A stretch of DNA of 63,124 bases, filler included. It is 3 parts of 3 records of this genome, joined end to end, with 100 filler letters (N's around TTAATTAATTAA, not from the genome) between each part and the next. Parts side by side here need not be neighbours in the genome. Positions count along the whole stretch, not along the records: positions 13,094 to 31,854 come from SRR31156797_5334; 2 more parts are not named here. One strand, given 5' to 3'. The notes beneath the pieces were generated by a model. That model did not search any database. It saw only the letters and a program-made list of their open reading frames with translations, and had not been told where the DNA came from. The stretch's first letter is position 1. Each line of letters opens with the position of its first letter. This document shows, one piece after another, positions 13,094 through 38,974 of the stretch. Position numbers and translations under genes: made by a program.

Positions 13094-13165
13094 GGTAAAG
13101 CTTGATTTTCAAATTGAGCTAATAGTACTTTTGAGACAGCCTCTCATATCATATTTGAAAAAAAA

Positions 13166-13423
13166 TTACAATCCTAGAGCTTCAGCTTCAGCATCAGAAG
13201 TTTCATCATTCTTTTTCTCAAAATCTTTATCCTTTTTTTCTTCAAATGCTGAATCTTTTTTTACATCAAGCTCTTTTTCTTCTTCAACCTTAATATCTGC
13301 CTCTGTATCCTTTTTCATTTCAGTCTTCTCTGTATCTTTTTTAACATCTTTAGTTTCACCTGAACCACAAGACATTAATGCCAGAAACAATAAGGCAATT
13401 GCTACATAAGTAATAATTTTCAT
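13166..13423 (-). CDS. Small, highly charged (K/E/D-rich) lipoprotein
   Basis: MKIITYVAIALLFLALMSC lipobox followed by a low-complexity charged tail. Confidence 0.7.
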   Translation of the reverse strand: MKIITYVAIALLFLALMSCGSGETKDVKKDTEKTEMKKDTEADIKVEEEKELDVKKDSAFEEKKDKDFEKKNDETSDAEAEALGL

Positions 13424-13484
13424 AACAGTAATTTTAAATTTAGTTGAATATCTTTTTAAAGTTCAAATCAATTAATCGATCATT

Positions 13485-14426
13485 TTATCGTTTATCTCTC
13501 ACAAAGCGAAAACCATACATAAAGTAGTTAGTATACTCTCCAACACTCACCCGATAACGGGTACGGCAAGCTTTTGATTGATCACCCCAGCTACCACCAC
13601 GTAGCACTCTTGAATTACCTGATTTTGGGCCTTGTGGATTTTCCTTCGGACTAAAACCATAATAATCGCGATCGTATTTATCAATGCACCATTCATATAC
13701 ATTTCCTGTCATATCATAAATCCCCAATTCATTGGGATTCTTTTGTCCAACTGGCTGGGTACCATGTCCTTCATAAAAATCAGAACTTTGTAGTCCCGTA
13801 GAGTTCTCATAATGCCAACCAACTTCATCCAAATTATTACTTCCGCTGTAAATAAATCCTCCACTTTTATTGCCACCCCTTGCAGCAAACTCCCATTCTG
13901 CTTCGGTAGGTAATCTTCCACCTGCCCATTTACAAAAGGCTGCTGCCCCAAACCAACTTACCTCAACCACCGGGTAATTCTCCTTACCGGGTTCTGGTAC
14001 AAACTTACCATCCACATAAGTAATTTGACTTAAGCTTTCATCAATGGAGATAAACTGCTTGCCGTTTTTCGTAGCATTTTGTCCAATACCGGATTTATTT
14101 AAAAAAACACAAAATTGCCAGTTTGTTATTTCATAGCGACTTATGTAAAAATCATCAATACTCACCTCATGTAAAGGTGTTTCATCAACACCGCATTCCT
14201 CCTGGTTCTGATCACAACCCATCATGTAAGTTCCGCCTTCAACAGCAACCAAATCCAACTCTACACCACATGAATCATCCACATAATCCTCAAATGGGTC
14301 AGCACCTTTCAGAAAGTCCCAAAACGAACCCTGATATTCAGTTTCAGCCATAGCCCCACTCTGACCACTGGCAAGATGTGCGATAAATGTTAGGAAAAAA
14401 AAGACTTTAAAAAAGGCATTTCTCAT
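13485..14426 (-). CDS. Exported formylglycine-generating enzyme (SUMF1/FGE-sulfatase) domain protein
   Basis: Signal peptide. GGTYMMG, RLPTEAEWEFAARGG, PNELGIYDMTGNVYEWC, RVLRGGSW and GFR motifs. Confidence 0.88.
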   Translation of the reverse strand: MRNAFFKVFFFLTFIAHLASGQSGAMAETEYQGSFWDFLKGADPFEDYVDDSCGVELDLVAVEGGTYMMGCDQNQEECGVDETPLHEVSIDDFYISRYEITNWQFCVFLNKSGIGQNATKNGKQFISIDESLSQITYVDGKFVPEPGKENYPVVEVSWFGAAAFCKWAGGRLPTEAEWEFAARGGNKSGGFIYSGSNNLDEVGWHYENSTGLQSSDFYEGHGTQPVGQKNPNELGIYDMTGNVYEWCIDKYDRDYYGFSPKENPQGPKSGNSRVLRGGSWGDQSKACRTRYRVSVGEYTNYFMYGFRFVRDKR

Positions 14427-14628
14427 TTTTCAATATTGAATCTCAAATTTACAATGATTTGGTTAGACTAAAAAACGACAATTTAAAGATTAAGTTACAA
14501 ATAGCTCATCAAACGTGCTTATTATAGGAAAAATTAATCTTATTTCCTCTAGACAAATTCTTTTATTCTAGAAAAAGGCTTTTCATACACACATTTTTTT
14601 TCGAAATTTGCAAACTTAATCAAATTGT

Positions 14629-16944: not shown

Positions 16945-17069
16945 CTACTACTAAAATTTGAAATAGATATAAATTTCAAATACTAAAAAAAATAACTAAT
17001 TTTACACCGATAGCTAATTGACTGCTATTAACTTCAACACTATAGCTTACCAACGAAAACAAATAATAA

Positions 17070-17663
17070 ATGGATTACAACACGAATAGAGAGAAACTGA
17101 TCTTACCTGAGTATGGACGACATATCCAGAAACTTGTAGATCACATGAAGGCAATTGAAGATAAAGACGAACGATCTAGATTTGCGCATGCCCTTGTTCC
17201 AATTATGGCTCAGGTTAATACAAATATTAAAGAAAATGGCGATTTCAAACATAAGCTTTGGGATCATTTATATATTATGGCTGACTTTGATCTGGATATT
17301 GATGCTCCTTACGAAATGCCTAAACGTGAAGTTCTCAATAAAAAGCCAGATAGACTGCCATACACACAAGGAAAGTTCAAGAAAAAACACTATGGTAAAA
17401 TCATTCAGAAAATGATGGACCAAATAGATAAATATGAAGGTGAAGAACAGGATGCATTGGTAGAACTTTTAGCCAATCAGCTTAAAAAATCATACGTGAA
17501 ATGGAATAAAGAATCAGTAAATGACGATGTAATTCTAAATGATTTTGTGGAGTTAGCTGAAAAAGACATTAACTTTAAAGAAGACATAAAACTTGTGGAA
17601 GCTCGCGAAATCATGTCAAAACCAAGTAAAAAGAAAAAAGTAACCCGCAAAAACCGCAAATAA
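17070..17663 (+). CDS. DUF4290 domain protein (Bacteroidetes gene typically preceding murA)
   Basis: MDYNTNREKLILPEYGRHIQK...HKLWDHL. Overlaps the murA start (TAATG). Confidence 0.85.
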   Translation: MDYNTNREKLILPEYGRHIQKLVDHMKAIEDKDERSRFAHALVPIMAQVNTNIKENGDFKHKLWDHLYIMADFDLDIDAPYEMPKREVLNKKPDRLPYTQGKFKKKHYGKIIQKMMDQIDKYEGEEQDALVELLANQLKKSYVKWNKESVNDDVILNDFVELAEKDINFKEDIKLVEAREIMSKPSKKKKVTRKNRK

Positions 17664-18970
17664 TGGCTAGTTTTGTTATTGAAGGTGGACACCAATTAAA
17701 AGGTGAAATAATCCCGCAAGGGGCAAAAAACGAAGCACTACAAGTAATATGTGCTGTATTATTAACCGACCAGGAAGTTACAATCGACAATATCCCATCC
17801 ATCAGAGACGTGCATAAGCTTATTGAGCTGTTGAGTGGAATGAATGTCAAAGTAACACAAAACAGTCCATCCTCATATACATTCAAAGCCGACGAAGTTA
17901 ACCTTGATTACCTCAAAACAGAAGAATTCAGTCAACAAAGTCAAAGCATTAGAGGTTCAATCATGATTGCCGGCCCCCTTCTTGCCCGTTTCGGAGAAGT
18001 TTTTATTCCACGTCCGGGTGGCGATAAAATTGGTCGTCGCAGATTAGACACCCATTTTGTAGGATTAAATAAACTTGGTGCCGATTTCCATTATGATGCT
18101 GAAAAAAGCGCATTTACAGCCAAAACTAAGCGTCTTAAAGGAGCTTCTATGCTATTAGAAGAAGCCAGTGTAACGGGTACAGCTAATGTATTAATGGGAG
18201 CAGTTTTAGCCGAAGGAAAAACCACTATTTATAACGCAGCTTGCGAACCATATTTGCAGCAATTATCAAAAATGTTGGTAAAGATGGGTGCTAAAATTTC
18301 TGGTATCGCTTCTAACCTTCTCATTGTTGAAGGTGTTGAAAAATTAGATGGGTGTATTCATTCTTGTTTGCCGGACATGATTGAAGTAGGTTCATTCATT
18401 GGAATGGCAGCTATGACACAAAGTGAAATCACCATCAAAAATGCAGGTATTCAGCATCTTGGAATTATCCCACGTGCTTTTGAAAAATTAGGTATTGCCT
18501 TTCGCTTCGAAAATGACGATATTCATATTCCTGCTCAGTCCAGGTACGAAATAGAAAAATTTATCGATGGGTCAATACTTACTATTGATGATGCTCCATG
18601 GCCTGGACTTACGCCAGATTTGCTTTCAATAATATTAGTGGTAGCAACCCAGGCCAATGGAAGTGTTGTAATCCATCAAAAAATGTTTGAATCCAGACTA
18701 TTTTTCGTTGATAAATTAATTGATATGGGTGCACAAATTATTTTATGTGACCCACATAGAGCTACAGTTATTGGAACTAACCGAGCCAATAAATTAAGAC
18801 CAACAGTTATGACCAGCCCTGACATCAGAGCGGGAGTTGCATTACTTATTGCTGCCCTCTCTGCCGATGGAGTTAGCCAAATTCACAATATTGAACAAAT
18901 AGACCGTGGATACCAAAATATTGACGGCAGATTAAATGCACTTGGCGCAAAAATTACCAGATTACAATAA
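17663..18970 (+). CDS. murA: UDP-N-acetylglucosamine 1-carboxyvinyltransferase
   Basis: QGAKNEAL, PGGDKIGRR, SVTGTAN, MFESR, SPDIRAG, IDRGY. Confidence 0.96.
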   Translation: MASFVIEGGHQLKGEIIPQGAKNEALQVICAVLLTDQEVTIDNIPSIRDVHKLIELLSGMNVKVTQNSPSSYTFKADEVNLDYLKTEEFSQQSQSIRGSIMIAGPLLARFGEVFIPRPGGDKIGRRRLDTHFVGLNKLGADFHYDAEKSAFTAKTKRLKGASMLLEEASVTGTANVLMGAVLAEGKTTIYNAACEPYLQQLSKMLVKMGAKISGIASNLLIVEGVEKLDGCIHSCLPDMIEVGSFIGMAAMTQSEITIKNAGIQHLGIIPRAFEKLGIAFRFENDDIHIPAQSRYEIEKFIDGSILTIDDAPWPGLTPDLLSIILVVATQANGSVVIHQKMFESRLFFVDKLIDMGAQIILCDPHRATVIGTNRANKLRPTVMTSPDIRAGVALLIAALSADGVSQIHNIEQIDRGYQNIDGRLNALGAKITRLQ

Positions 18971-19021
18971 AACAATCTGGGAAGTTTATCGTTAGCCATT
19001 AAAATGAAATAACCAACCTAT

Positions 19022-19531
19022 ATGAGACTAATTTTTGCTATTTTTCTAACAACCACATTAACTTTCGCTTACGGTCAACAAACTGGAACGCAAATCGGAC
19101 AAATTGCACCTGAAATTACCAATACAACTCCCAATGGGAAACAACTATCACTTTCAGAATTAAAAGGCAAATTGGTATTGATTGATTTTTGGGCATCATG
19201 GTGTAGACCTTGTCGTTACGAAAACCCAAATCTTGTAAATGCATATAACAAATTCAAAGACAAAGAATTTGTCAATGGATCAGGATTCACAATTTTCAGT
19301 GTTTCATTGGACAAGAATAAAAAACAATGGATTGAAGCCATCAAAGCTGACAATCTGGTGTGGGAATATCATGTTAGTGATTTAAAAGGATGGTATGCGA
19401 TGCCAGCTCAAAAATATGGTGTAAGAAGCATTCCAAGTAACTTCCTAATTGATGAAAATGGGAAAATTGTAGCCAAAGACTTGCGTGGACCAAGATTAGA
19501 AGATGTATTAAAACAATTGGAGAAAAAGTAA
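19022..19531 (+). CDS. TlpA/ResA-like thiol-disulfide oxidoreductase
   Basis: Signal peptide, LIDFWASWCRPCR, IPSNFLID..GKI. Confidence 0.9.
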   Translation: MRLIFAIFLTTTLTFAYGQQTGTQIGQIAPEITNTTPNGKQLSLSELKGKLVLIDFWASWCRPCRYENPNLVNAYNKFKDKEFVNGSGFTIFSVSLDKNKKQWIEAIKADNLVWEYHVSDLKGWYAMPAQKYGVRSIPSNFLIDENGKIVAKDLRGPRLEDVLKQLEKK

Positions 19532-19532
19532 A

Positions 19533-20810
19533 CTATTTAATATAGAGTTTCAACATTTGTTCAATGGCATCTTGGCAGGCTACACAAAACCCTTCTGCTG
19601 TATTGGTATTCATTTTGCAATCCATTGATGGACTATAAACACCTTTTGACATATATGCACCTCCTTCAAAAACCCCTGTTTTACCTTTATATTTATTATC
19701 TCTAGGTGTTGGAACGGGTGTTCCTTTAGAAATTAAATCTTTCCATTTACCATCAAAAGCAACAAGCGTTGTAATATTCGGATTCCAGGGTTCTTTCTTC
19801 GTATCGAGCATATCTTCATAACTCACTTCACTATCATAATATTCGTCAGCCAAACCACCAAAATGATGACCAAATTCATGTACAAACACTTCTTCGCCCC
19901 AATCACTATCTGCAGCAAAAACAGAAAAATGATTGAAAATTCCCCCACCACCATAACGCTTGGTATTAACCATAATTAAAGCATAATCATATGGAGCTGA
20001 AGCAGCCACATCTTTCATTTTAAAATATTCGGTAATAGTAAGGTAACGTGAAAGATTTAAAGAATTAAAATGACTATTTAAAGCTGTGTTTTTATAAATC
20101 TCTTTCCGTGGTTCTGTTGTACCAGGTTCCATTGACTCCGGATGAACTAACCAAATATTAATTCCGGATTTATATTTATTAAAAGGTTTTTGCGAAAGCA
20201 AATATTTTGCAAATCTTTTGGTATCCTCAATTGCTTTAATTGAATCTGAAACTAAATAACCCTCTGCTATAAAAACCAAATCCAAACTATTAGATGGCTC
20301 TCCTTTACCTAAAATTCTTTGAGCTTTATAAATAGGATTCTTCTTTATGAAAAACTCTTTCTGAGGATTGATATTCCATGCACTTAATAGTTCAAACCCA
20401 TCTTTTTTTCGCAAGCGCAACTCCACTTTTATCTTATTTTTCGGAAATGGAATATTAATTGACTGCTCAAAACTTACAGGTCCTTTTCGAGTTAAGGCTG
20501 TAGTTTGCCATTCTTCAAATAAAGTTGAAAAACCGTTTCTAAAAATAAGCTGACCATTCTCACTGTAAACATCTAACCTGTATGTACCGTAGTCCATAGG
20601 CCAAACTAAACTCTTTTCATTACCAGACCAGTGCGGCTCTTCTATCAAATTTACCAAACCTGCAGTCTGGGAAGATTTTGTTCCCGTCAAAATAAAATCA
20701 ATTCGCAAAGACTTGTTGAAATTAAAGAAATCTGAAGGCTCGCTTTGAGCTAAAATTGGCTGACTAAATAAATAAATTAGTAAACTAAAAAATATGCTTA
20801 TTCTTATCAT
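19533..20810 (-). CDS. Peptidase M64 (IgA peptidase-like) metalloprotease
   Basis: Signal peptide, VFIAEGY, YGGGG, HEFGHHFGGLADEY, C-terminal CKM...FCVAC. Confidence 0.9.
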   Translation of the reverse strand: MIRISIFFSLLIYLFSQPILAQSEPSDFFNFNKSLRIDFILTGTKSSQTAGLVNLIEEPHWSGNEKSLVWPMDYGTYRLDVYSENGQLIFRNGFSTLFEEWQTTALTRKGPVSFEQSINIPFPKNKIKVELRLRKKDGFELLSAWNINPQKEFFIKKNPIYKAQRILGKGEPSNSLDLVFIAEGYLVSDSIKAIEDTKRFAKYLLSQKPFNKYKSGINIWLVHPESMEPGTTEPRKEIYKNTALNSHFNSLNLSRYLTITEYFKMKDVAASAPYDYALIMVNTKRYGGGGIFNHFSVFAADSDWGEEVFVHEFGHHFGGLADEYYDSEVSYEDMLDTKKEPWNPNITTLVAFDGKWKDLISKGTPVPTPRDNKYKGKTGVFEGGAYMSKGVYSPSMDCKMNTNTAEGFCVACQDAIEQMLKLYIK

Positions 20811-20850
20811 TTTTACTTATTTTCGTTTAAAATAACAAAATTAATGCCCA

Positions 20851-22110
20851 ATGGAAAAATTTGAGATGATATTTAAAGGTTGGCTTGAGTCAACAGGTAT
20901 GACTACTGACATAGTAAATATATTGTACATAGCTTCAAATATAATTGCTATTGCCTTAATTAGCATCATTGCAGACTGGATTGCAAAAAAAATCATTCTG
21001 CAAACTATAAAACATATTGTTCAAAGATCAAAAGTAACCTGGGACGACATCATTTATGAGCGCAAAGTATTTAATAGATTAAGTCGCCTCGCCCCTGCCA
21101 TTGTAATTTATTATCTCATAGCGATTGCTTTTCCAGATGCACCGGGTTGGGTGGCCTTTATTCAAAAACTAACCTATATCTACATGGTATTGGTTGGTAT
21201 TCTGGTATTAGATTCCTTCATAAACGCCTTACATGAAATTTACAAACAAACTCCTATCTCCAAAGACCGCTCGATTAAAGGTTATGTACAGGTAGTCCAA
21301 ATTGTTGTTTATTTCTTTGGTATCATAATTATTTTGGCGGTATTGCTTGGAAAATCACCTGGAACCTTATTGGCTGGTTTGGGAGCTTTAGCTGCTGTAC
21401 TCATGTTAGTATTTAAGGATAGTATCCTTGGTCTAGTGGCTGGTATACAATTATCATTAAATAAAATGGTAAAAATTGGAGATTGGATCACAATGCCTAG
21501 CCATAAGGCTGATGGAAATGTTATTGAAATTACTTTGAATACTGTAAAAGTACGAAACTTTGACATGACGATTACCACCATTCCAACATACGCGCTGGTA
21601 TCGCAATCATTCAATAATTGGAGCGGCATGTTGGAATCAGGCGGACGAAGAATAAAAAGGTCCATTAACATAGATTTACGCTCAGTTAAATTTTGTTCAG
21701 AAGAACTATTAGATAAACTTGAAAAGATACACCACCTTACTGACTATATTAAAGAAAGAAGAGCCGAAGTTGCTGAATTTAATAAAAGCAAAGGGGTAGA
21801 CCAGAGTATAATGGCTAATGGACGCAGACTTACAAACATTGGAATATTTAGAAAGTATATAGAAGAATATTTGAAAAATCACCCACAAATTAACATGGAC
21901 ATGACGTTTCTCATTCGTCAATTGGAACCAACTGAAATGGGCGTGCCAATTGAAATCTATGTATTCAGTAAAGAGCAAAGATGGGTACAATATGAAGGAA
22001 TTCAAGGAGATATTTTTGATCACTTATTAGCTGCAATTAATGAATTTGAATTAAGATTATATCAAAATCCAAGTGGAAGTGATTTCGCCGAATTTATCGA
22101 TAACAAATAG
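20851..22110 (+). CDS. Mechanosensitive channel, MscS family (YbdG/MscM-like)
   Basis: TM helices, LVFKDSILGLVAGIQ, GDWI, TVKVRNFD, SGGRRIKRS. Confidence 0.9.
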   Translation: MEKFEMIFKGWLESTGMTTDIVNILYIASNIIAIALISIIADWIAKKIILQTIKHIVQRSKVTWDDIIYERKVFNRLSRLAPAIVIYYLIAIAFPDAPGWVAFIQKLTYIYMVLVGILVLDSFINALHEIYKQTPISKDRSIKGYVQVVQIVVYFFGIIIILAVLLGKSPGTLLAGLGALAAVLMLVFKDSILGLVAGIQLSLNKMVKIGDWITMPSHKADGNVIEITLNTVKVRNFDMTITTIPTYALVSQSFNNWSGMLESGGRRIKRSINIDLRSVKFCSEELLDKLEKIHHLTDYIKERRAEVAEFNKSKGVDQSIMANGRRLTNIGIFRKYIEEYLKNHPQINMDMTFLIRQLEPTEMGVPIEIYVFSKEQRWVQYEGIQGDIFDHLLAAINEFELRLYQNPSGSDFAEFIDNK

Positions 22111-22132
22111 GATTAAAAACTGAGTCAAAATA

Positions 22133-22169
22133 AAAATCAGCAATTTGAACAATTCAAATTGCTGATTTT
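22133..22169. terminator. Bidirectional terminator between the convergent mscS and crp/fnr genes
   Basis: AAAATCAGCAATTTGAA-CAA-TTCAAATTGCTGATTTT, a long perfect stem. Confidence 0.75.
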
Positions 22170-22188
22170 GTTTTATGTGGAATTTACA

Positions 22189-22875
22189 CTAACCTATTTC
22201 GCTAAACTTCTGAAGTTTATTCATGTCTAATATTTTAAAAGCTTTTCCTTCAACAGCAATAATCTTCTCTTCCTTAAACTCTTTAATAGCCCGGGATAAT
22301 GTTTCCTGTGATAACTGCGTAAGCTCACTCAAATCTTTTCTACTGATTGTTAAAACAAATTCATCTGATTGGTAAATTCGTTCTGAGAGACATAATAGTA
22401 TATCAGCTAACTTTCCTGCTACTTGTTTTTGTGTAAGTGTAATTATTCGTTCATAAACTCTTGTGGCCCACAAATTCATAATTTGCATTAACGAAGCAGC
22501 AAATTTTCCATTTTGCTCTATCATTTGCTCAAACATATCAGCCTCAAACATGCAAAACTCTGAATCTTCATAAGTTGTACAAGTATAGGGGTAAACCCTA
22601 TCATTAAATAAAGCCTCAAGACCAATGAAACTTTGGCCGGGTTTAATACAAAAGATTACGTCTTTATTGGGATGTTCTAAATAAGTTTTAACAAGGCCTT
22701 CTTTAAGGAATAAAATTTTAGATGCATACACTCCCTGCTTGCAGATTACCTCTCCCTTACGATATACAACTGTTTTATGCTTTTCCTGCACAAGTTTTTG
22801 TTGCTCTTCAAGCAAATTAACAAAACAACTTGATATACAAGCGCAATCTTTACAATTCGTACTACTCATATCCAT
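22189..22875 (-). CDS. Crp/Fnr-family regulator with an N-terminal Cys cluster (FNR-like)
   Basis: N-terminal CKDCACISSC, a cNMP-like domain, and HTH recognition helix SQETLSR (FNR-type E-x-x-S-R). Confidence 0.9.
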   Translation of the reverse strand: MDMSSTNCKDCACISSCFVNLLEEQQKLVQEKHKTVVYRKGEVICKQGVYASKILFLKEGLVKTYLEHPNKDVIFCIKPGQSFIGLEALFNDRVYPYTCTTYEDSEFCMFEADMFEQMIEQNGKFAASLMQIMNLWATRVYERIITLTQKQVAGKLADILLCLSERIYQSDEFVLTISRKDLSELTQLSQETLSRAIKEFKEEKIIAVEGKAFKILDMNKLQKFSEIG

Positions 22876-22922
22876 TAAATTAATCTATAACGAAGATAAT
22901 AAATATTCCATCAAATAATGTA

Positions 22923-22936
22923 TTGATCTAGATCAA
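22923..22936. promoter_or_regulatory. Perfect FNR box in the divergent promoter region
   Basis: TTGATCTAGATCAA equals TTGAT-N4-ATCAA and is fully palindromic. Confidence 0.8.
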
Positions 22937-23140
22937 AAATGTGATTAATCTGCTTCGGATTCTTTCTTGAGACGCCTGTTAACGATAATTTAACTTATGA
23001 TTTTTTTTTAATATAGTTTTACATATCCTGCAATTATCAAGAGATACAGGACAATTAAAATTAAACAAACAAGCGGGAAATCAAACAATTAAAGAATTAA
23101 CAATTAACTATAAAAAATCACCATTAACACTACAATTACT

Positions 23141-24736
23141 ATGAATAGACTTAAAAATGTACTAGCCACAATAATTTTTACGGTGATATTACCGATAGGA
23201 GTTTTGTGGTTAACATTTACAATTGCATCGTTGGAAAACGAACCGTTGCCTATTGAGATTAACCTCAAGGCAAATGAGATCTCATCAGTAGATCATTCTC
23301 AATTTGAAGTGTTACAACGCGAATTTGTTGACCCAAGAGAAGTTACAGAAACTTGCTTGTCTTGCCACAATGGTCGCGATGAAGAAATTATGGCCACAGC
23401 CCACTGGAATTGGTTAAGAGATACTGAAGTTCCCGGACATGGAGAAGTTAGTATTGGTAAGAAAAACCTTATTAATAATTTTTGTACGGGTGTAATCGGA
23501 AATAACGGATCATGTATGCGCTGTCATATTGGATACGGATGGGAAGATGACTCTTTCGATTTTGGCGATCCAAAAAACATTGACTGTCTTGTATGTCATG
23601 ATAATACTGAAACATATTTTAAACAAAAAGGACAATACGGATGGCCTGCAACTGAAGAAACTGCAAATGACGCATATCAGGTACCTGATTATTCATATGT
23701 AGCGTCAAATGTAGGTGCACCTAAAAAGAACAATTGTGGTATTTGTCATTTCTATGGTGGTGGTGGAAACAATGTGAAGCATGGTGATTTAGAGCAAGCT
23801 TTAGTAGGTTGCAAAAGAGAAGTAGATGTTCACATGACAGCTGAAGGACTTGACATGACATGTATAGATTGTCATACAACAGAAAACCACAATATTAAAG
23901 GTAAATTATATTCTGTATCAGCAATGGACACAAACCGTATTACATGTACGCAGTGCCATACAAGTGAGCCTCACCAGGATATGATTTTGGACCGTCACTA
24001 TGCCAAAGTAACTTGTCAGGCCTGTCATATTCCAAGATATGCCAAAGTTAATGCGACTAAAATGTGGTGGGATTATTCAACTGCAGGTCGATTAAATGAA
24101 GATGGACTGCCAATTGCTGAAGATGATGCTGATGGAAATCACAATTATCTCTCAATTAAAGGTTCATTTGTTTGGGATCAAAATACCGAGCCGGATTATG
24201 TATGGTTTAATGGAACGGCTGATCACTTTTTATTTGAAGACACTATTGAAACTATCCCTGTTAAGATAAACGAGCTAATGGGCGACTATCATGATGAGAA
24301 AGCCAAAATTTGGCCGGTTAAAATTCACAAGGGTAGACAGCCTTATGATCCTGTGAATAATACCCTTATTAGTTTAAAAGTTTGGGCTCCTGAAAAAGGC
24401 ATGGGTGCATTTTGGAAAGATTTTGATTTTGGACCAGCTGCAGAAATAGGAATGGAACTGGCCGGTAGAGAATACAGCGGAGAATATGATTTTGTTGAAA
24501 CAGAAGTATTTTGGCCAATTAACCACATGGTATCTCCTAAAGAGGATGTAGTTTCATGTACTGAATGTCACTCCAGAGATGGACGTTTAGAAAATCTTAA
24601 CGGATTTTATTTACCAGGTCGTGATTACAACAAAGCCGTAAATTATGGTGGATTTGCATTAATCATATTATCTCTATTGGGTGTAATTGGCCACGGAATA
24701 GGTAGAATCATTTTTTCAATTCGCAGAAACAAATAA
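23141..24736 (+). CDS. otr: Octaheme c-type cytochrome, tetrathionate reductase (Otr) family
   Basis: Eight CxxCH motifs (CLSCH, CMRCH, CLVCH, CGICH, CIDCH, CTQCH, CQACH, CTECH), Otr-type GKKNLINNFC and GGGGNNVKHGDL, and hydrophobic N- and C-terminal anchors. Confidence 0.9.
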   Translation: MNRLKNVLATIIFTVILPIGVLWLTFTIASLENEPLPIEINLKANEISSVDHSQFEVLQREFVDPREVTETCLSCHNGRDEEIMATAHWNWLRDTEVPGHGEVSIGKKNLINNFCTGVIGNNGSCMRCHIGYGWEDDSFDFGDPKNIDCLVCHDNTETYFKQKGQYGWPATEETANDAYQVPDYSYVASNVGAPKKNNCGICHFYGGGGNNVKHGDLEQALVGCKREVDVHMTAEGLDMTCIDCHTTENHNIKGKLYSVSAMDTNRITCTQCHTSEPHQDMILDRHYAKVTCQACHIPRYAKVNATKMWWDYSTAGRLNEDGLPIAEDDADGNHNYLSIKGSFVWDQNTEPDYVWFNGTADHFLFEDTIETIPVKINELMGDYHDEKAKIWPVKIHKGRQPYDPVNNTLISLKVWAPEKGMGAFWKDFDFGPAAEIGMELAGREYSGEYDFVETEVFWPINHMVSPKEDVVSCTECHSRDGRLENLNGFYLPGRDYNKAVNYGGFALIILSLLGVIGHGIGRIIFSIRRNK

Positions 24737-24748
24737 AATCAGAAAACA

Positions 24749-25378
24749 ATGAAAAAAGTTAAGATATATAGCAAATACGAAAGATTTTGGCACTGGACAC
24801 AAATGCTACTGATCATTCTGTTAATTGTAACAGGATTTGAAATTCATGGCATGTATGAAGCATTTGGTTATGAAGCTTCAGTTAGATTACACTCCGTTGC
24901 AGGTTGGGTATTCCTTGTATTAGCAGTTTTCACTGCATTCTGGATGCTTGTAACCGGCCAAAGTCGACAATTTATACCTATTAGAAAGAATGTTAAGTCT
25001 CAAATTCTCTATTATTTATCAGGTATATTCAGAAAAGAACCACATCCAGTTGAAAAAACTGCCGATTGTAAATTAAATCCATTGCAAAGAATTGTGTACT
25101 TCGGACTTTTAATCTTGATCTTCCCAGTACAAATGGTCACTGGATTTATATATATGTATTTCCACTATTCAGATAATGTATTGGATTTACAATCTCTTGA
25201 ACCTATTGCAGTTATTCATACGCTTGGGGCATTCTTGCTAGTGGTGTTTATAATTGTACACCTTTATTTAATCACAACTGGTCATACTGTATTCACAAAT
25301 CTTTGGTCAATGATAACAGGTTATGAAAAATTAGATTGTGATGATCCAGAACCACAAACAGAAACAGCAACCAAATAA
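24749..25378 (+). CDS. Di-heme cytochrome b membrane subunit (PhsC / NiFe-hydrogenase b-type)
   Basis: ERFWHW..ITGFEIHG-like N-terminus (VTGFEIHG), RLHS, KLNPLQR, IHTLGAF..IVHLY. Four TM helices with His ligands. Confidence 0.88.
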   Translation: MKKVKIYSKYERFWHWTQMLLIILLIVTGFEIHGMYEAFGYEASVRLHSVAGWVFLVLAVFTAFWMLVTGQSRQFIPIRKNVKSQILYYLSGIFRKEPHPVEKTADCKLNPLQRIVYFGLLILIFPVQMVTGFIYMYFHYSDNVLDLQSLEPIAVIHTLGAFLLVVFIIVHLYLITTGHTVFTNLWSMITGYEKLDCDDPEPQTETATK

Positions 25379-25397
25379 TCAGAAATACCAATTAACT

Positions 25398-25916
25398 ATG
25401 AAGAAAATAATAATATTAGGACTCATTTTAGGGTCATTCATTTTAAGCAGCTGTACTTCCGGTGTAGGAAATGCAACAGCTGACCAGTTAGTTGAACAAG
25501 CATCTAAGGAAATAAAAATTATTACTCCTGAAGAGCTTTTCAATATTATGGACGCAGGTGAAGAAATCTTTACCTTAATTGATGTAAGAACTGCAATGGA
25601 ATACTATCCAGGCTACATTCCAGGAGCAGTATTAATTAACAGAGGATCTTTGGAATTTAAAATTTTAAAAGAATCATTCTGGGAAGAAGCAGGTTTATAT
25701 ATGCCTAAAAAAGACGAAAAGGTAGTAGTGTATTGCAAAAAAGGTAGCCGAGCTGCCCTTGCTGCAAAAACCCTGAAAGAAATGGGCTTTACAAATGTAT
25801 ATTCCTTAGAAGGTGGTTTCAAAAATTGGGAACTCACTTATCCTGACTGGACAGAGAAAAACCTCGAAGCAATGGGCGGAGGATCATCTACTCACGACAT
25901 GGGCGGAGGTTGCTAA
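25398..25916 (+). CDS. Single-domain rhodanese lipoprotein with a C-terminal GGGC tail
   Basis: Lipobox FILSSC, LIDVR..EY..GYIPGA, active loop YCKKGSRA, SLEGGF..W. Ends HDMGGGC-stop. Start moved to ATG 25398. Confidence 0.88.
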   Translation: MKKIIILGLILGSFILSSCTSGVGNATADQLVEQASKEIKIITPEELFNIMDAGEEIFTLIDVRTAMEYYPGYIPGAVLINRGSLEFKILKESFWEEAGLYMPKKDEKVVVYCKKGSRAALAAKTLKEMGFTNVYSLEGGFKNWELTYPDWTEKNLEAMGGGSSTHDMGGGC

Positions 25917-25964
25917 ACATAGACAATTAACCTAACTATTATTCAATAACTTAAAACAACAATT

Positions 25965-26951
25965 ATGAAAAATTTGAAATTATTATTGATCGCTTTCTTA
26001 ATCCCAACAATTCTTTTTACAGCTTGTAAAGATGAAACAAATGATGATAACAACACATCACAATCATCTCATGAAATTCTTGCTGCTTACCTTGTGGAAA
26101 ATGATATGGATTTACCAGATGTTGTAGATGCATGGATTCAGGGAGCACCTGCTTTAGCAGATGTAGCAACATTTATTGATTCATACAACATTATTGACAT
26201 TCGCAGTTCAGCTGATTACGATGCCGGTCATATTGAAGGAGCAGTAAACTCAGCATTAACAGATGTAATTACAACTGCTGGTGAATTTACAGAAACAAAA
26301 CCAGTTTTGGTTGTTTGTTACACAGGACAAACTGCTGGACATGCTGTAGTTGCCTTACGCTTAAGCGGTTACCCAGATGCTAAGGTTTTGAAATGGGGTA
26401 TGGCTGGATGGCGCACTGGCGACGACTATTCTGGCAAATGGGAATCAAAAACTGCTCAATTAAATCATTCAAATTGGGTATCAACAGGTACTGCTGCGAC
26501 AACTGTTCCTTTTACAGCTCCTGACTTAAGTATTTCTGGTAGTGATGCTGAAGCGTTATTAAATGCACAAGTGGCTTCTATGCTTGCGGGTGGATTATCA
26601 GGTGAAATGCCATCTACTATTTTAGATGCTCCACAAGATTATTTTATCAATAACTTTTGGTCAGAAACTGATTTTAACACTTATGGTCATATTGACGGAT
26701 GCTATAGAATTAATTCTTTAAGCCTAGAAGAAGAAACTATTTATAACCTTGACTCAGAAAAACCAGTTGTAACTTATTGCTGGACTGGACAAACTTCTTC
26801 TATGATTACTGCTTATTTAACAGTAATTGGTTATGATGCAGTTAGCTTAAAATTTGGTGCTAATGGAATTATTCATGACGATTTAACCGCAGCTGGTGTT
26901 CACTTTTACTCAGAACCAACTGAAGATTTACCAGTTGTACCAACAAAATAA
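25965..26951 (+). CDS. Tandem-rhodanese lipoprotein
   Basis: Lipobox LFTAC then KDETNDD. IIDIR..DYDAGHIEGA. Two Cys loops, CYTGQTA and CWTGQTS. Confidence 0.85.
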   Translation: MKNLKLLLIAFLIPTILFTACKDETNDDNNTSQSSHEILAAYLVENDMDLPDVVDAWIQGAPALADVATFIDSYNIIDIRSSADYDAGHIEGAVNSALTDVITTAGEFTETKPVLVVCYTGQTAGHAVVALRLSGYPDAKVLKWGMAGWRTGDDYSGKWESKTAQLNHSNWVSTGTAATTVPFTAPDLSISGSDAEALLNAQVASMLAGGLSGEMPSTILDAPQDYFINNFWSETDFNTYGHIDGCYRINSLSLEEETIYNLDSEKPVVTYCWTGQTSSMITAYLTVIGYDAVSLKFGANGIIHDDLTAAGVHFYSEPTEDLPVVPTK

Positions 26952-26958
26952 TACATTT

Positions 26959-26990
26959 TAACGGATAGGCTAGCGCCTATCCGTTATTTT
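26959..26990 (+). terminator. Intra-operon hairpin/terminator between the tandem rhodanese and the porin
   Basis: TAACGGATAGGC-TAGC-GCCTATCCGTTA-TTTT. Confidence 0.65.
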
Positions 26991-27041
26991 ATAAAACAAG
27001 CATACCCCTGCTTGCTTAAGTAGAACATTAAATCAATTAAC

Positions 27042-28106
27042 ATGAACTATAAAACTATACTTTTAGCAATTCTTCTCATGGGTGCATGGCAGGGATTGTT
27101 TGCACAAGGCTGCGAAGAACCAGCCGGTGATGCAGAAGGTGACGATGCCAATAAACCAAAACTTATCGGTTTCATTCAACCACAATTTGACTATAACTTT
27201 GTAAAAGATGGACCTGATACTTACGATGAAAACACCTTTAAATTTAAACGTGCTCGTATTGGTGTAACAGGTAAAATTCCTTACGACTTCGCATACTATG
27301 TAATGGTAGAAAATAGTGCATTTGTAAGTTCAACAGGAAATCCATACTTACTTGATGCATTTATCTCTTACAGGCGTTTTAAATGGGCTAATGTTTCATT
27401 CGGATCATTTAAACAACCATTTGGCCTTGAAATTAATACATCTTGCTCTGGATTGCATACTATTGAAAGATCAGAGGTTTCTAACCAATTAGTATCTCCT
27501 ATGCGAGACATGGGTGTTATGATACTTGGTGGAACTAATGAAACATTAGTGAAATATGCAGTCGCTTTTATGAATGGAAGTGGTTTGGGAAAAGTTGATA
27601 ATAACATCAAAAAAGATGTTTCCGGTCGAATTACCTTTAAACCAATTGATTTCGTAAGATTCGGTGGTAGCTTCAGATATGGTTGGCCAACAAATTCTAA
27701 TGCCGACTCAATTGACAGATTTTCACTTGCAGGAGAATTAGAAGTAAATTGGAATAATTTTATGCTCCAGGCAGAATATATCTGGGATAAAGGAGCATAT
27801 AATCTTGCCAGTGGTGGTGGTTGCGGAGGTGACCCAATGCTGCTAGGTGAAAAACGCGGTGGTTACTATATAATGGCTAAATATAAAACATATTTTATGT
27901 TTGAGCCAGTTGTAAAATATGAATTCTTCGATGTTGGAAATGATTCAGGTGACAAAAGTGGAATTTTAACATTAGGAGCAAATTACTTTTTCAATGACAA
28001 AGTAAGGCTTCAAGCAAACTACCGTTATCGTGCAGAAACAAATGATGCAAAAGATGCAGAAGTTCCAAATGATGCCTTCCTATTACAATTACAAGTTAAA
28101 TTCTAA
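27042..28106 (+). CDS. OprO/OprP-like (anion-selective) outer-membrane porin with Cys motifs
   Basis: Signal peptide, FKFKRARIGVTG, LLDAFISY, GSFKQPFGLE, RDMG, LGANYF, and C-terminal LQLQVKF (beta-barrel signal). Confidence 0.8.
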   Translation: MNYKTILLAILLMGAWQGLFAQGCEEPAGDAEGDDANKPKLIGFIQPQFDYNFVKDGPDTYDENTFKFKRARIGVTGKIPYDFAYYVMVENSAFVSSTGNPYLLDAFISYRRFKWANVSFGSFKQPFGLEINTSCSGLHTIERSEVSNQLVSPMRDMGVMILGGTNETLVKYAVAFMNGSGLGKVDNNIKKDVSGRITFKPIDFVRFGGSFRYGWPTNSNADSIDRFSLAGELEVNWNNFMLQAEYIWDKGAYNLASGGGCGGDPMLLGEKRGGYYIMAKYKTYFMFEPVVKYEFFDVGNDSGDKSGILTLGANYFFNDKVRLQANYRYRAETNDAKDAEVPNDAFLLQLQVKF

Positions 28107-28121
28107 AAAAAACTATTTATC

Positions 28122-28952
28122 ATGAGAAAAATATTTTTATCAATCACATTTGTACTGTTCCTCGTAAGTTCAATGCTAGCGCAGGATGTTATTTCTGCCA
28201 TGGACTTATTCAAGGAATCAAGAAAACCTAATGTAGTTATCGTTGACGCTCGTAGCGATGCTAAATATAAAGCTGATGCACACATCAGAAACGCTGTGCA
28301 TGTACCTTACACTGAACTTCAGAAAGATGCTCCTTACAAGGGTGCTTTAAAAAGTCCAACAGAAATCGCTCAGGTTTTAGGAAAAAATGGTGTATCTGCT
28401 GACAAAAAAATAGTTGTATATGACGAGGGTTCTGGTAAATATGCCGGACGTTTATACTGGATATTAAAGTATATGGGCGCAAAAGATGTAGTAATGCTCG
28501 ACGGAGGATTAGAAGCATGGAAAGCGAAAAGAAAACCTATTACGAAAAATCCTACTATGGCTAAAAAAGGCCAATTTAAAGCAGCACCAAATGCAGCTAT
28601 TCTAGCTAAAATGGCTGATGTTAAAAAAGGTTCTGCGGTATTACTTGACGTTCGTTCAGCAGCAGAATTCAATGGAACTGATGGAAAAAGTAAAGGTCAC
28701 GTACCAGGTTCTATCAACATTGAATATAAAGAAGTTTTGGACGGAAATGGTATGCTAAAGAGCAATTCCGATCTTGGTAGCGTTTTCAGCAAACTAGGTG
28801 GAAAAAATAAAGAAATTATTGTATTCTGTGCAACAAGTGTACGTGCAGGGGTTGTTTTCCTTGCATTAAAAGGCGCAGGTTACACAAACGTTAAAGTTTA
28901 TGATGGTGCGTACAACGAGTGGGTACATGCCGGTAATAAGCTGGATAAATAG
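28122..28952 (+). CDS. Exported two-domain sulfurtransferase (TST/SseA-like)
   Basis: Sec signal peptide, IVDAR..Y...HIRNA, GRLYWILKYMG..LDGG, LLDVRS..EF..GHVPGS, active loop FCATSVRA, YDGAYNEW. Confidence 0.9.
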   Translation: MRKIFLSITFVLFLVSSMLAQDVISAMDLFKESRKPNVVIVDARSDAKYKADAHIRNAVHVPYTELQKDAPYKGALKSPTEIAQVLGKNGVSADKKIVVYDEGSGKYAGRLYWILKYMGAKDVVMLDGGLEAWKAKRKPITKNPTMAKKGQFKAAPNAAILAKMADVKKGSAVLLDVRSAAEFNGTDGKSKGHVPGSINIEYKEVLDGNGMLKSNSDLGSVFSKLGGKNKEIIVFCATSVRAGVVFLALKGAGYTNVKVYDGAYNEWVHAGNKLDK

Positions 28953-28968
28953 TTAATTGTTAATTGGG

Positions 28969-29001
28969 AAAACCGCTTCAGTTTCTGGGGCGGTTTTTTT
29001 T
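28969..29001 (+). terminator. Rho-independent terminator ending the otr-rhodanese-porin operon
   Basis: AAAACCGCTTCAG-TTT-CTGGGGCGGTTTTTTTT. Confidence 0.8.
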
Positions 29002-29171
29002 ATTGAAATTTTAAAACATCAATCTGAATTTCATTTATATAAAATATCTGATAGTAATTCAAAACCAGATCAATTAAAACAAATCAAATATTTTTTTGCA
29101 TATCCGCTAACTCCGCTACTTGCCTAAGCATTATACTCCAAGAAACTCCAATACACTCTCCACGCTCCCAG

Positions 29172-29206
29172 TTCACTTTTCACTATAAACTATTAACTAT
29201 TCACTA
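29172..29206 (+). repeat. Degenerate 7-bp tandem repeat (TTCACTA) x5 in a C-rich, G-poor intergenic tract
   Basis: ttcactt ttcacta taaacta ttaacta ttcacta. Confidence 0.7.
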
Positions 29207-29349
29207 TTCTCGACTATCTGCAATCTACTATCTAAGCCAAACCTTCGCATTCAAAAAACTCCAAATCACAAATTCTTAAAACTGATTGGTCAAATATTTG
29301 TTGTATTAACATTTATTGCGCAAACAATTTTTAATTTTGTAGACGTTTA

Positions 29350-30468
29350 ATGAATAAAACCAAAAATTCACAAACCATGTTACAACGTTTAATTACAATC
29401 ATCGCAACCCTAACAATATCATTCACAGTGCTAAACGCACAACAACAAGGGCCTTATATAGCTTTTGATAAAGTCGTTCACGATTATGGAAAAATCAAAG
29501 AGAATGATGGAATTGCCAAATACCAGTTTGAATTTACAAACACCGGTAGTGCTCCATTAATCATCAATGAAGTAAAACCTACTTGTGGATGTACCAGTTC
29601 TGAATATACCAAAAAGCCTGTAAGTCCGGGAGAAAAAGGGTTTATTTCTGCTGAGTTTAACCCCAAAAATCGTCCCGGTCCATTTAACAAAACAATTAGA
29701 GTTTTTACCAATTCTGCAACAAATCCAAATGTTGTACTCAGAATTAAAGGTGACGTACAACCTAAACCTCGCTCAATTGAAGATGATTATCCAAGAAGTA
29801 TGGGGCCATTGCGTTTCGACAATACCCAATTTGCTTTTATGAATATCTCAAATAAGGAGAAAAGAATGAGCACAGTTAAGTTTATAAATGCTTCAGAAGA
29901 AGAGCTTACACTTGAATTTGGAAATCTTCCTGCTTATTTGGACGTTACAATAAATCCTAAGACAGTAAAGCCCGGTGAAACAGGAGAAATCCAAACCACA
30001 TTCCTTGGAGATAAAGCAAATGACCTTGGCTACATAAGAGGTAGAATGTCATTAAAAATAAATGGAGATATCAATCCCCGACATAATATGGTAGTTACAG
30101 CTTTGGTAAACGAAGATTTCTCTCATTTGTCTGAAGAAGAGCTTGCAAACGCTCCACATATTAAATTTGAAAATGAAAAATTTGAATTTGGCACTATCAC
30201 TGAGGGTGAAAAAGTAACACACGAATTCAAATTCACCAATACGGGTAAAAGCGACCTTATCATTCGTAAAGTTCATGCTAGTTGTGGATGCACAGCTGTA
30301 GCACCACCTAAAAAGGCTATTAAACCAGGAGAAACCAGTTCTATTAAAGCTACTTTCAACTCTAGAGGAAAACACAACAGACAGCATAAAACAATTCGTA
30401 TTTATGCCAACGACCCTGAAAATAGTATATCTACTCTAATTATTAGAGGAGAAGTAAAAAAAAAGTAA
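29350..30468 (+). CDS. DUF1573 domain protein (three Ig-like domains)
   Basis: Two repeats of F.FTNTG..PL/DLII..V..(T/S)CGCT. Signal peptide; the start may be MLQRL at 29377. Confidence 0.88.
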   Translation: MNKTKNSQTMLQRLITIIATLTISFTVLNAQQQGPYIAFDKVVHDYGKIKENDGIAKYQFEFTNTGSAPLIINEVKPTCGCTSSEYTKKPVSPGEKGFISAEFNPKNRPGPFNKTIRVFTNSATNPNVVLRIKGDVQPKPRSIEDDYPRSMGPLRFDNTQFAFMNISNKEKRMSTVKFINASEEELTLEFGNLPAYLDVTINPKTVKPGETGEIQTTFLGDKANDLGYIRGRMSLKINGDINPRHNMVVTALVNEDFSHLSEEELANAPHIKFENEKFEFGTITEGEKVTHEFKFTNTGKSDLIIRKVHASCGCTAVAPPKKAIKPGETSSIKATFNSRGKHNRQHKTIRIYANDPENSISTLIIRGEVKKK

Positions 30469-30499
30469 AAGCGCAGGAGCTTAGAATATATTAAAACAG

Positions 30500-30526
30500 A
30501 AGAGGGCGAAAAGCCCTCTTTTTTTT
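30500..30526 (+). terminator. Rho-independent terminator
   Basis: AAGAGGGC-GAAAA-GCCCTCTT followed by a T-run. Confidence 0.8.
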
Positions 30527-30658
30527 ATATTAACATATATCTTTATAAGGATAAACACTGCATTTTATAGGCAAAAAACACCTTACATATTTTTCGCACC
30601 AAACAAAAAGGTATTTACTTTGTAGATTATAAATCAATCTGAAAAGATCACATAATCA

Positions 30659-31750
30659 ATGTCTGATAAAAAAGAACCATATAAAAGTGCACTCAAAGTA
30701 AATGAGGGTGTAAATCAACCACCCAGCATTAGCCCCAGTGCACGCCATAATTTTAAACGGTTTCGTAAAAAAGAGCTAACACTTGACGAATACTACGATG
30801 GCATTGTAAATGGTAATCGTAGCATATTAAGCCGAGCTATCACATTAGTTGAAAGTGCTTTGCCAGTGCATCAGGAAATGGCTCAGCAGATTATAGAAAA
30901 GTGTATTCCCCTTTCAGGTAACTCTATACGAATTGGGATTACAGGCGTGCCGGGTGTTGGAAAAAGTACATTTATTGAATCACTCGGTACTGAAATAACT
31001 TCAAGAGGACATAAACTCGCTGTTTTAGCTATTGACCCAAGTAGTGAACGTTCAAAGGGTTCTATTTTAGGAGATAAAACACGAATGGAAAACTTATCCA
31101 GTAATCCTCATGCATTTATTCGCCCCTCACCTTCAGCTGGCTCTCTGGGAGGAGTAGCTAGAAAAACGCGTGAGTCAATGATACTTTGCGAGGCAGCAGG
31201 TTTCGATACTATTTTTATCGAAACGGTAGGTGTTGGACAAAGTGAAACAGCCGTGCATTCCATGGTTGATTTCTTTTTACTCCTTATGCTTGCTGGCGCA
31301 GGAGATGAATTGCAAGGCATTAAACGAGGAATTATGGAAATGGCTGATGCCATTGCTATCAACAAAGCTGACGGAACAAATAAAGATAAAGCCAATCGTG
31401 CCAAAGCTGAATACACTAGTGCATTGCATCTCTTCCCTCCTTCTCCATCAAAATGGTCACCAAAAGTGGTTACATGTTCGGCATTGCATCACATTGATAT
31501 TAACCGAGTTTGGGATACTATTAACGACTATAAAAAACTCACACAGGAAAACCAGTATTGGTTCCACAAACGCAAAGAACAGTCCCGCTATTGGATGTAT
31601 GAAACCATTAATGAGCAACTGCGCAATAATTTTTATCATAATGATGAAATATCGAAAGAGTTAAAAAATGCCGAAGACGATGTATTAAGCAATAAGCTAA
31701 GCTCCTTTCAGGCTGCACAGAAACTGCTCGACGAGTATTTTAAAAGATGA
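30659..31750 (+). CDS. meaB: Methylmalonyl-CoA mutase-associated GTPase MeaB/ArgK
   Basis: GITGVPGVGKST, DPSS..KGSILGDKTRM, ETVGVGQSE, GDELQGIKRG, NKADG. Confidence 0.93.
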   Translation: MSDKKEPYKSALKVNEGVNQPPSISPSARHNFKRFRKKELTLDEYYDGIVNGNRSILSRAITLVESALPVHQEMAQQIIEKCIPLSGNSIRIGITGVPGVGKSTFIESLGTEITSRGHKLAVLAIDPSSERSKGSILGDKTRMENLSSNPHAFIRPSPSAGSLGGVARKTRESMILCEAAGFDTIFIETVGVGQSETAVHSMVDFFLLLMLAGAGDELQGIKRGIMEMADAIAINKADGTNKDKANRAKAEYTSALHLFPPSPSKWSPKVVTCSALHHIDINRVWDTINDYKKLTQENQYWFHKRKEQSRYWMYETINEQLRNNFYHNDEISKELKNAEDDVLSNKLSSFQAAQKLLDEYFKR

Positions 31751-31769
31751 GGTTTCAATCAAAAAGAGA

Positions 31770-31854
31770 ACAGAATACAGAATACAGAATGCAGAATACA
31801 GAATACAGAGGACAGAAAACAGAGAACAGAATACAGAAAACAGAAGACAGAAAA
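31770..31854 (+). repeat. 7-bp tandem repeat (ACAGAAT consensus) x12 at the contig end
   Basis: acagaat x3, gcagaat, acagaat, acagagg, acagaaa, acagaga, acagaat, acagaaa, acagaag, acagaaa, running into the linker. Confidence 0.9.
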
Positions 31855-38961: not shown

Positions 38962-38974
38962 TTGGGTTTAGTTT

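Follow-up and report, generated by a model that had tools for sequence, protein, structure and literature searches.

What is the function of a cysteine placed as the very last residue of a rhodanese lipoprotein? The question is raised by a gene at positions 25398–25916 of a DNA stretch of 63,124 nucleotides (filler included; hereafter the window), in which three parts of three records of one genome are joined end to end and positions 13,094–31,854 come from record SRR31156797_5334. The product of this gene is referred to below as the arm rhodanese. The answer to which we give an even chance is that it is a rhodanese-borne sulfur-carrier arm, resembling SoxY without being homologous to it, and that it feeds the Otr-family octaheme cytochrome c of the same gene cluster. 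This reading draws on the gene context and on the analogy with SoxY. The features of the arm rhodanese are as follows:

25398–25916, forward strand: arm rhodanese lipoprotein, 172 amino acids plus stop (Pfam, reading of the open reading frame, homologues)
25398–25454, forward strand: signal peptide and lipobox, residues 1–19, ending ...ILSSC (read from the sequence)
25734–25736, forward strand: codon of the catalytic Cys113 in the YCKKGSR loop (sequence and homologue comparison)
25866–25904, forward strand: variable linker, predicted to be disordered, residues 157–169, EAMGGGSSTHDMG (column entropy, AlphaFold2 confidence)
25905–25913, forward strand: invariant terminal Gly170-Gly171-Cys172 (81/81 orthologues, zero entropy)

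The arm rhodanese and its active site

The ATG at position 25398, opening MKKIIILGLILGSFILSSC..., was taken as the start of the arm rhodanese because homologues begin at that position. The N-terminus, MKKIIILGLILGSFILSS-C19, reads as a signal peptide followed by a lipobox, with Cys19 at least 90% conserved. No acidic lipoprotein export signal could be read from the sequence after Cys19. Residues 43–145 match the Rhodanese domain PF00581 with 82.5 bits (cut-off 22.2; E = 3.2e-23), and no NCBIfam model reached its cut-off with the protein. The nearest solved relatives are the ordinary rhodaneses 6mxv, 2hhg and Sud (1qxn), the last of which matches the profile of the arm rhodanese family with E = 3e-14.

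A scan of one genome per species yielded 423 relatives, and the best 80 of the 423 loci were analysed; together with the window they make up a set of 81 orthologues. The form found in this set, a free lipoprotein, is designated type A. The active-site loop of the window protein fits the C-x4-R signature of competent rhodaneses (C113-KKGS-R118), with R118 invariant. The loop was located in 77 of the 81 orthologues, and 76 of the 77 have Cys at the catalytic position. At L040:8001-8510, a type-A orthologue, Asp replaces the catalytic Cys (...LYDKKGNR...) and the GGC end is retained. The first-pass annotation had called the window protein a rhodanese lipoprotein with its active Cys in YCKKGSR, which is borne out by the PF00581 match, the lipobox Cys19 and C113: as judged from its sequence, the arm rhodanese is a lipoprotein of the rhodanese family that has kept its catalytic cysteine.

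Conservation of the tip and variability of the linker

The reading frame closes at 25899–25916 with ATG GGC GGA GGT TGC TAA, translated as M-G-G-G-C-stop. The C-terminal end of the protein reads ...EAMGGGSSTHDMGGGC and its tail ...EKNLEAMGGGSSTHDMGGGC. GGC and a stop codon terminate every one of the 81 orthologues. A search of 5.8 billion proteins gave 21 best hits (41–80% identity, 170–182 amino acids), all Cys-terminated, 20 with GGC and one with GGDSC; the tail is missing from the more distant, shorter rhodaneses found in the same search. Since all orthologues and all 21 top hits end in Cys, the GGC tail is not a product of chance. The terminal Cys is encoded by TGC at 43 and by TGT at 37 of the 80 genome loci, and the following stop is TAA at 64, TAG at 10 and TGA at 6 of them.

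Column entropy in an alignment of 74 rows (A4) is zero at positions 170–172 and ranges from 1.3 to 3.1 bits at positions 157–169, the linker, in which Gly, Ser, Glu, Ala, His and Asp are abundant. The length of the tail after the GGxxxW motif stays constant at 25–29 residues (median 27; 80 orthologues with the motif found), and Cys113 and Cys172 are spaced by 56–60 residues across orthologues. AlphaFold2, supplied with this alignment, gave the rhodanese fold a predicted local distance difference test score (pLDDT) above 93 over roughly residues 30–150; along the tail the score drops from 83 to 50 and then to 39, and residues 165–172 lie below 50. With GGC invariant, the linker drifting in sequence at a fixed length and disorder predicted, the tail has what appears to be the signature of a tether bearing a functional tip. 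A C-terminal Cys on a flexible linker had already been proposed for the window protein, with an alignment of homologues as the suggested check. The alignment retains the terminal Cys throughout, and the linker variability and low pLDDT agree with the proposal.

The same proposal included possible homologues with selenocysteine in place of the terminal Cys, for which no support was obtained. The rhodanese reading frames of 222 loci (2.3 Mb) contained no ending in GG-TGA with a stop close by; the search took in 80 of the 423 genome relatives, so that rare variants could escape it. Four regular-expression hits for TGA variants turned out to be normal stop codons following GGCGG and were rejected.

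Linkage to Otr and cytochrome b

According to Pfam, the gene cluster of the window contains Otr, a cytochrome b, three rhodaneses and a porin. The genes around the arm rhodanese are:

22189–22875, reverse strand: Crp/Fnr-type regulator, divergent (Pfam cNMP_binding and HTH_Crp_2)
23141–24736, forward strand: Otr-family octaheme cytochrome c, 531 amino acids (TIGR04315, 1SP3)
24749–25378, forward strand: cytochrome b, 209 amino acids (PF01292, E = 3e-29)
25965–26951, forward strand: two-domain rhodanese lipoprotein (rhd2), 328 amino acids, with loops CYTGQTA and CWTGQTS (Pfam)
27042–28106, forward strand: porin, O/P-like, with three conserved Cys (PF07396)
28122–28952, forward strand: secreted two-domain rhodanese (rhd3), 276 amino acids (Pfam, E = 3.5e-40)

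Otr and cytochrome b lie directly upstream of the arm rhodanese at all 70 loci for which 2.6 kb or more of upstream DNA was available. The rhd2–porin–rhd3 trio lies directly downstream at 44 of the 56 loci with enough downstream DNA, and is displaced or absent at the remaining 12. A homologue of the Crp/Fnr regulator is found upstream of Otr in most related loci. Neither SoxZ, SoxB or SoxAX nor a YeeE homologue was seen by Pfam in the window's cluster. The carriers among the 80 loci are Bacteroidales and Marinilabiliales-type genomes, including Carboxylicivirga, Roseimarinus, Labilibacter, Ancylomarina, Lentimicrobiaceae, Prolixibacteraceae and some metagenome-assembled genomes labelled ‘Chlorobiota’.

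The window Otr scores 579 bits against TIGR04315 (cut-off 375) and matches PDB entry 1SP3 with E = 3.9e-119. The columns of the eight CXXCH motifs are invariant in the Otr alignment. The C-terminal hydrophobic helix contains His518 (bases 24692–24694), invariant in 120/120 anchored forms, which might be a heme ligand or a contact to cytochrome b; the 10 soluble forms are devoid of this helix. Otr also has a seventeenth Cys outside the CXXCH motifs, Cys115 (bases 23483–23485), which is invariant in 130/130 sequences from all four locus types, as is Lys107 in the same 130. By manual count in the alignment, Lys107 and Cys115 correspond in the 1SP3 chain to residues 56 and 64, which reportedly line the Lys-ligated active-site heme (Mowat et al. 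2004). A thiol arm could thus be expected to meet Otr at the Cys115/Lys107 site. Complex prediction with Otr residues 45–500 and rhodanese residues 20–172, the hemes left out, gave scores of 0.41, 0.02 and 0.11, which lend the complex no support and do not count against it either.

The best NCBIfam match of the cytochrome b, ‘thiosulfate reductase cytochrome B subunit’, is weak and falls below the cut-off; the protein is presumed to be the quinol-oxidising partner of Otr. In one branch (L044, L054 and about 20 others among L043–L080), cytochrome b is 381–390 amino acids long and carries a C-terminal PAS fusion, through which the quinol oxidase might sense redox state or a ligand. The possibility that L043–L080 have an additional gene in the gap ahead of the rhodanese was rejected, as that gap is the PAS extension of cytochrome b.

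The Gly-Gly-Cys tip on other scaffolds

Of 401 genomes sampled from the phylum, 59 matched TIGR04315 above its cut-off, and 62 Otr places were examined, 52 with an anchored Otr and an adjacent cytochrome b and 10 with a soluble Otr. At 28 of the 52 anchored loci, designated type B, the pair is followed by a YeeE half of 171 amino acids and then by a protein of about 396 amino acids combining a YeeE half and a rhodanese. The type-B protein ends in GGC, GGCG, GGCS, GGCA, GGCT or GGCGA, and the catalytic position of its rhodanese domain is never Cys (27/27 aligned). Its tail is short and basic (KKxKRVIGGC) and has neither His nor Met. Types A and B thus share the Otr–cytochrome b pair and a terminal GGC on a domain of the rhodanese fold. 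They differ in that type B has a dead rhodanese fused to a channel half and a short basic tail, whereas the window form is an unfused lipoprotein whose catalytic Cys is live and whose tail is acidic or rich in Gly and Ser, with a porin and two more rhodaneses beside it. The two types occur together in one Roseimarinus and one Labilibacter genome, at L161 (G002) and L162 (G003), with two Otr–cytochrome b loci each. Taking the orthologues and the YeeE-fused forms together, the terminal Cys is better conserved than the catalytic one.

Tips of this kind are also present outside these two types. Triple-rhodanese lipoproteins end ...S(G/S)GCGG, and among the 150 cluster representatives that match the family profile best, 26, mostly lipoproteins, have ends of the form -GC, -GCG or -GCGG. 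Six of 53 rhd3 orthologues (L045, L049, L058, L069, L070 and L078) have a Ser/Lys-rich tail ending GGC. In a metagenome locus (L082:6349-9224), a tail-Cys rhodanese stands beside YeeE and TusA, with no Otr. Two further loci without Otr (L125:3990-15119 and L093:6754-15085) hold an array of YeeE, arm rhodanese, rhd2, porin, rhd3, arm rhodanese, DsrE and MvhD/HdrA-like genes. The arm rhodaneses of these three loci end in GGCGG or GCGG, their YeeE is full-length, and the MvhD/HdrA-like proteins nearby are iron-sulfur flavoproteins. In terms of gene content, the three loci resemble a variant of this periplasmic module geared to import and to processing in the cytoplasm. From its recurrence on dead YeeE-fused, tandem, rhd3-type and Otr-less rhodaneses, the GGC tip is judged to be a portable module, putatively for periplasmic sulfur hand-on, that is retained after the loss of the catalytic Cys in cis.

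Another Cys-rich tail was observed at L229 (G103:C1:2242254-2242430, reverse strand), where a rhodanese of 146 amino acids with no signal peptide ends ...SGGCCCGSPSGSSNSSGSCC; the Otr locus of this genome is without an arm.

Proposed sulfur transfer to Otr

Under the carrier-arm reading, Cys113 would take sulfane sulfur from thiosulfate or polysulfide and form a persulfide, as is usual in the chemistry of the rhodanese family. The linker of about 13 residues, if disordered as predicted, would let Cys172 reach Cys113 and take over the sulfur, forming a persulfide or polysulfide; an attack of Cys172 on tetrathionate would instead give a thiosulfonate. The loaded Cys172 would then be presented to the membrane-anchored Otr encoded two genes upstream, and Otr would reduce the adduct with quinol electrons delivered via cytochrome b, thereby regenerating the thiol. 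The double rhodanese, possibly at the surface, the Cys-bearing porin and the soluble double rhodanese may bring sulfur in from outside.

The carrier-arm reading is supported by the persistence of the tip beyond the catalytic Cys, in L040 and in 27/27 type-B domains, beside Otr and cytochrome b. The neighbours of tail-Cys rhodaneses elsewhere (YeeE, TusA, DsrE and Hdr-like proteins) are all sulfur-trafficking genes, which also speaks for it. Several observations weigh against a carrier dedicated to Otr. No tail-Cys protein is found nearby at 24 of the 52 anchored Otr loci, 22 of which belong to one clade, L218 being cut by a contig end; none is present at any of the 10 soluble Otr loci; and in five of five arm-less Otr genomes a GGC-tailed lipoprotein is absent among eight rhodanese matches. 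Conversely, the arm is not specific to Otr, as GGCG(G)-tailed rhodaneses also occur where the DNA retrieved contains no Otr, next to YeeE, TusA, DsrE or Hdr-like genes. Across the 130 Otr sequences no Cys co-varies with the arm: Cys115 is invariant whatever the locus type, and just 63% of type A have Cys224.

Porin and neighbouring rhodaneses

The porin has a trio of cysteines conserved in 56/56 orthologues, namely one in a Q-G-C directly behind the signal peptide at the N-terminus, one in an NTxC motif and one in a loop GGGC(G/S). In the window porin the loop reads GGGCGG, and Q-G-C follows a predicted signal-peptidase I site and is itself followed by an acidic stretch. The N-terminal Cys, judging by its position, looks like a mirror-image arm facing the periplasm. 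After its lipobox, rhd2 starts with C-K-D-E, and a K-(D/E)-rich start resembling a lipoprotein export signal is found in 46 of 57 orthologues. The consensus of this signal in Bacteroidetes is given as K-(D/E)2 (PMC5080379). Because of this resemblance rhd2 (328 amino acids) is possibly surface-exposed. The remaining rhodanese, rhd3, is of the thiosulfate/mercaptopyruvate sulfurtransferase type and has one catalytic Cys, Cys236.

These features allow a wider proposal, which is tentative and clearly less probable than the carrier arm itself. Otr-type octaheme cytochromes would be carrier-dependent reductases, with a persulfide, polysulfide or thiosulfonate on the Gly-Gly-Cys arm as their long-sought physiological substrate. 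In these Bacteroidota, a thiol relay independent of molybdenum would span the whole envelope and have the arm as its final link. Sulfur would pass in it from the surface rhodanese to the N-terminal Cys arm of the porin, on to the periplasmic rhodaneses and the arm, and so to Otr and cytochrome b, which would draw on quinol.

In window coordinates, two hybrid histidine kinases of 1744 and 1281 amino acids, with many PAS domains each, are encoded on the reverse strand at 33730–42820, 5 kb downstream of the cluster, and adjoin a PAS/GAF protein.

Alternative functions of the terminal cysteine

Two alternatives are unlikely, though rated above the others. Cys172 may act within its own molecule as a resolving cysteine, attacking the Cys113 persulfide and freeing sulfide, or forming a reducible Cys113–Cys172 disulfide or trisulfide. 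Both thiols belong to one polypeptide, 56–60 residues apart, the predicted disordered tail would be long enough to fold back on the domain, and nearly all type-A orthologues with a located loop (76/77) keep both cysteines. The strongest counter-argument comes from type B, where 27 of 27 YeeE-fused domains beside Otr are without the catalytic Cys and have kept the tip. L040, with Asp at the catalytic position and an intact GGC, and the conservation of the tip in excess of that of the catalytic Cys point the same way. The other alternative, equally improbable in our estimate, is a general periplasmic sulfur shuttle running from the porin and surface rhodanese through the arm to whatever acceptor is at hand, for instance a YeeE importer or other rhodaneses. 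Its main sink would not be Otr, whose tie to the arm would be one of co-regulation alone and whose substrate would be a free product, for example sulfite or tetrathionate. This would suit the tail-Cys rhodaneses that do without Otr, both beside YeeE/TusA (L082) and within the arrays of YeeE, rhd2, porin, rhd3, DsrE and Hdr-like genes (L125 and L093), as well as the porin's own conserved Cys near the mature N-terminus. A Desulfurivibrio model (PMC12142623) likewise places lipoprotein rhodaneses, porin and YeeE in sulfur import. Yet Pfam revealed no YeeE homologue in the cluster of the window, and type A is linked more tightly to Otr and cytochrome b (70/70) than to the trio (44/56).

The remaining alternatives have slim chances. 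A role of the terminal Cys as a metal or heme ligand would unite it with the His and Met of the tail (THDMGGGC) in binding Cu(I) or another metal, or the heme or metal site of Otr, as a chaperone or regulatory plug. Cys-bound copper is known from the related octaheme MccA, and Cys-ligated hemes from SoxAX and TsdA; the subgroup of the window does have H-D-M before GGGC, plus a second MGGG. But the His and Met are unconserved, the linker columns reaching 2.2–3.1 bits with GGC alone invariant, type-B tails are basic and contain neither residue, and one thiol makes a poor metal site. The metal ligand is rated only a little above selenium or tellurium handling, in which an ExtHI-like chalcogen-oxyanion system would use the arm thiol to form adducts of the selenotrisulfide type. 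The NCBIfam matches behind that idea, porin to ExtI at 54 bits and rhd3 to ExtH at 52 bits (Geobacter selenite/tellurite operon), are weak and far under the curated cut-offs of 150 and 200 bits; the genes in related contexts (YeeE, TusA, DsrE, Hdr-like, Otr) are classical sulfur genes, and the selenocysteine variant was not found in 222 loci. The least probable of all is a structural or processing role, with the terminal Cys forming an intermolecular disulfide in a dimer or envelope tether, or being part of a recognition or cleavage signal. A C-terminal Cys is capable of interchain disulfides, and Sud-type periplasmic rhodaneses are dimeric. A structural disulfide, however, needs neither an invariant Gly-Gly nor a long disordered linker of fixed length, and it gives no reason for the tip to have been grafted repeatedly on rhodanese scaffolds that are unrelated and, next to the same enzyme, on dead domains.

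Comparison with known systems

The likeness to SoxY, on which the carrier-arm reading partly depends, had been noted from the window sequence. It holds for the Gly-flanked C-terminal Cys and the predicted mobile arm; it does not extend to the protein family, as Pfam (E up to 0.01) lists only Rhodanese in the arm rhodanese. The C-terminal motif of SoxY is GGCGG, and relatives of the arm rhodanese end in GGCGG, GGCG or GCGG. Both proteins are placed in the periplasm, and the role proposed here, a covalent carrier presenting sulfur adducts to partner enzymes, is alike. Unlike SoxY, to which it has no homology, the arm rhodanese is a catalytic sulfurtransferase and a lipoprotein, and in type A its Cys is the last residue (GGC-COOH). 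Its proposed partner is a quinol-linked octaheme reductase, as opposed to the oxidising enzymes of the Sox system, and SoxZ, SoxB and SoxAX have no counterparts in the cluster.

Sud, the polysulfide-sulfur transferase of Wolinella succinogenes (PDB 1QXN), is a homologous single-domain periplasmic rhodanese and is also thought to hand sulfur over to a respiratory reductase, Psr. It is soluble, has one Cys and no C-terminal Cys arm, and its partner is a molybdoenzyme and not Otr; the arm rhodanese adds both the Cys arm and a lipid anchor. DsrC/TusE has in common with the arm rhodanese a flexible C-terminal arm whose redox-active Cys is the substrate of a membrane-linked reductase complex, but it is cytoplasmic, of another fold, with two cysteines on the arm, and has no Pfam match in the arm rhodanese.

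The window cytochrome belongs to the same family as Shewanella oneidensis Otr (1SP3), with the same eight heme motifs. The Shewanella protein is soluble and stands without this operon, whereas the window Otr carries a membrane helix at its C-terminus, is paired with a cytochrome b of its own and is followed by the arm rhodanese. Otr was reportedly crystallised in 2004 and named as a tetrathionate reductase. A 2026 knockout study detected no role of Otr in tetrathionate respiration and treats its physiological role and substrate as unresolved (PMC12949373); the role is treated in the same way in PMC8528874. The Desulfurivibrio study, as far as its accessible text goes, proposes lipoprotein rhodaneses, porin and YeeE for sulfur import and leaves the terminal Cys unmentioned (PMC12142623). 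No description of a terminal Cys arm on a rhodanese, or of its link to Otr, was found in the full-text literature, subscription papers and supplements lying outside the search. Judged by analogy, the arm is a putative new form of the swinging-arm principle of sulfur carriage, built on a rhodanese and tied to Otr.

Significance

The occurrence of a Cys arm beside an anchored Otr in two independent architectures provides a testable candidate for the Otr substrate, namely protein-bound sulfur. It also defines a type of carrier that would resemble SoxY and DsrC in principle and is built on a rhodanese. The gene set is shared by many anaerobic Bacteroidota of marine and sediment origin, among them the cultured genera Carboxylicivirga, Roseimarinus, Labilibacter and Ancylomarina, and may represent an overlooked molybdenum-independent route of sulfur-compound respiration. 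If the carrier-dependent Otr relay is true, these cells could respire external sulfur compounds.

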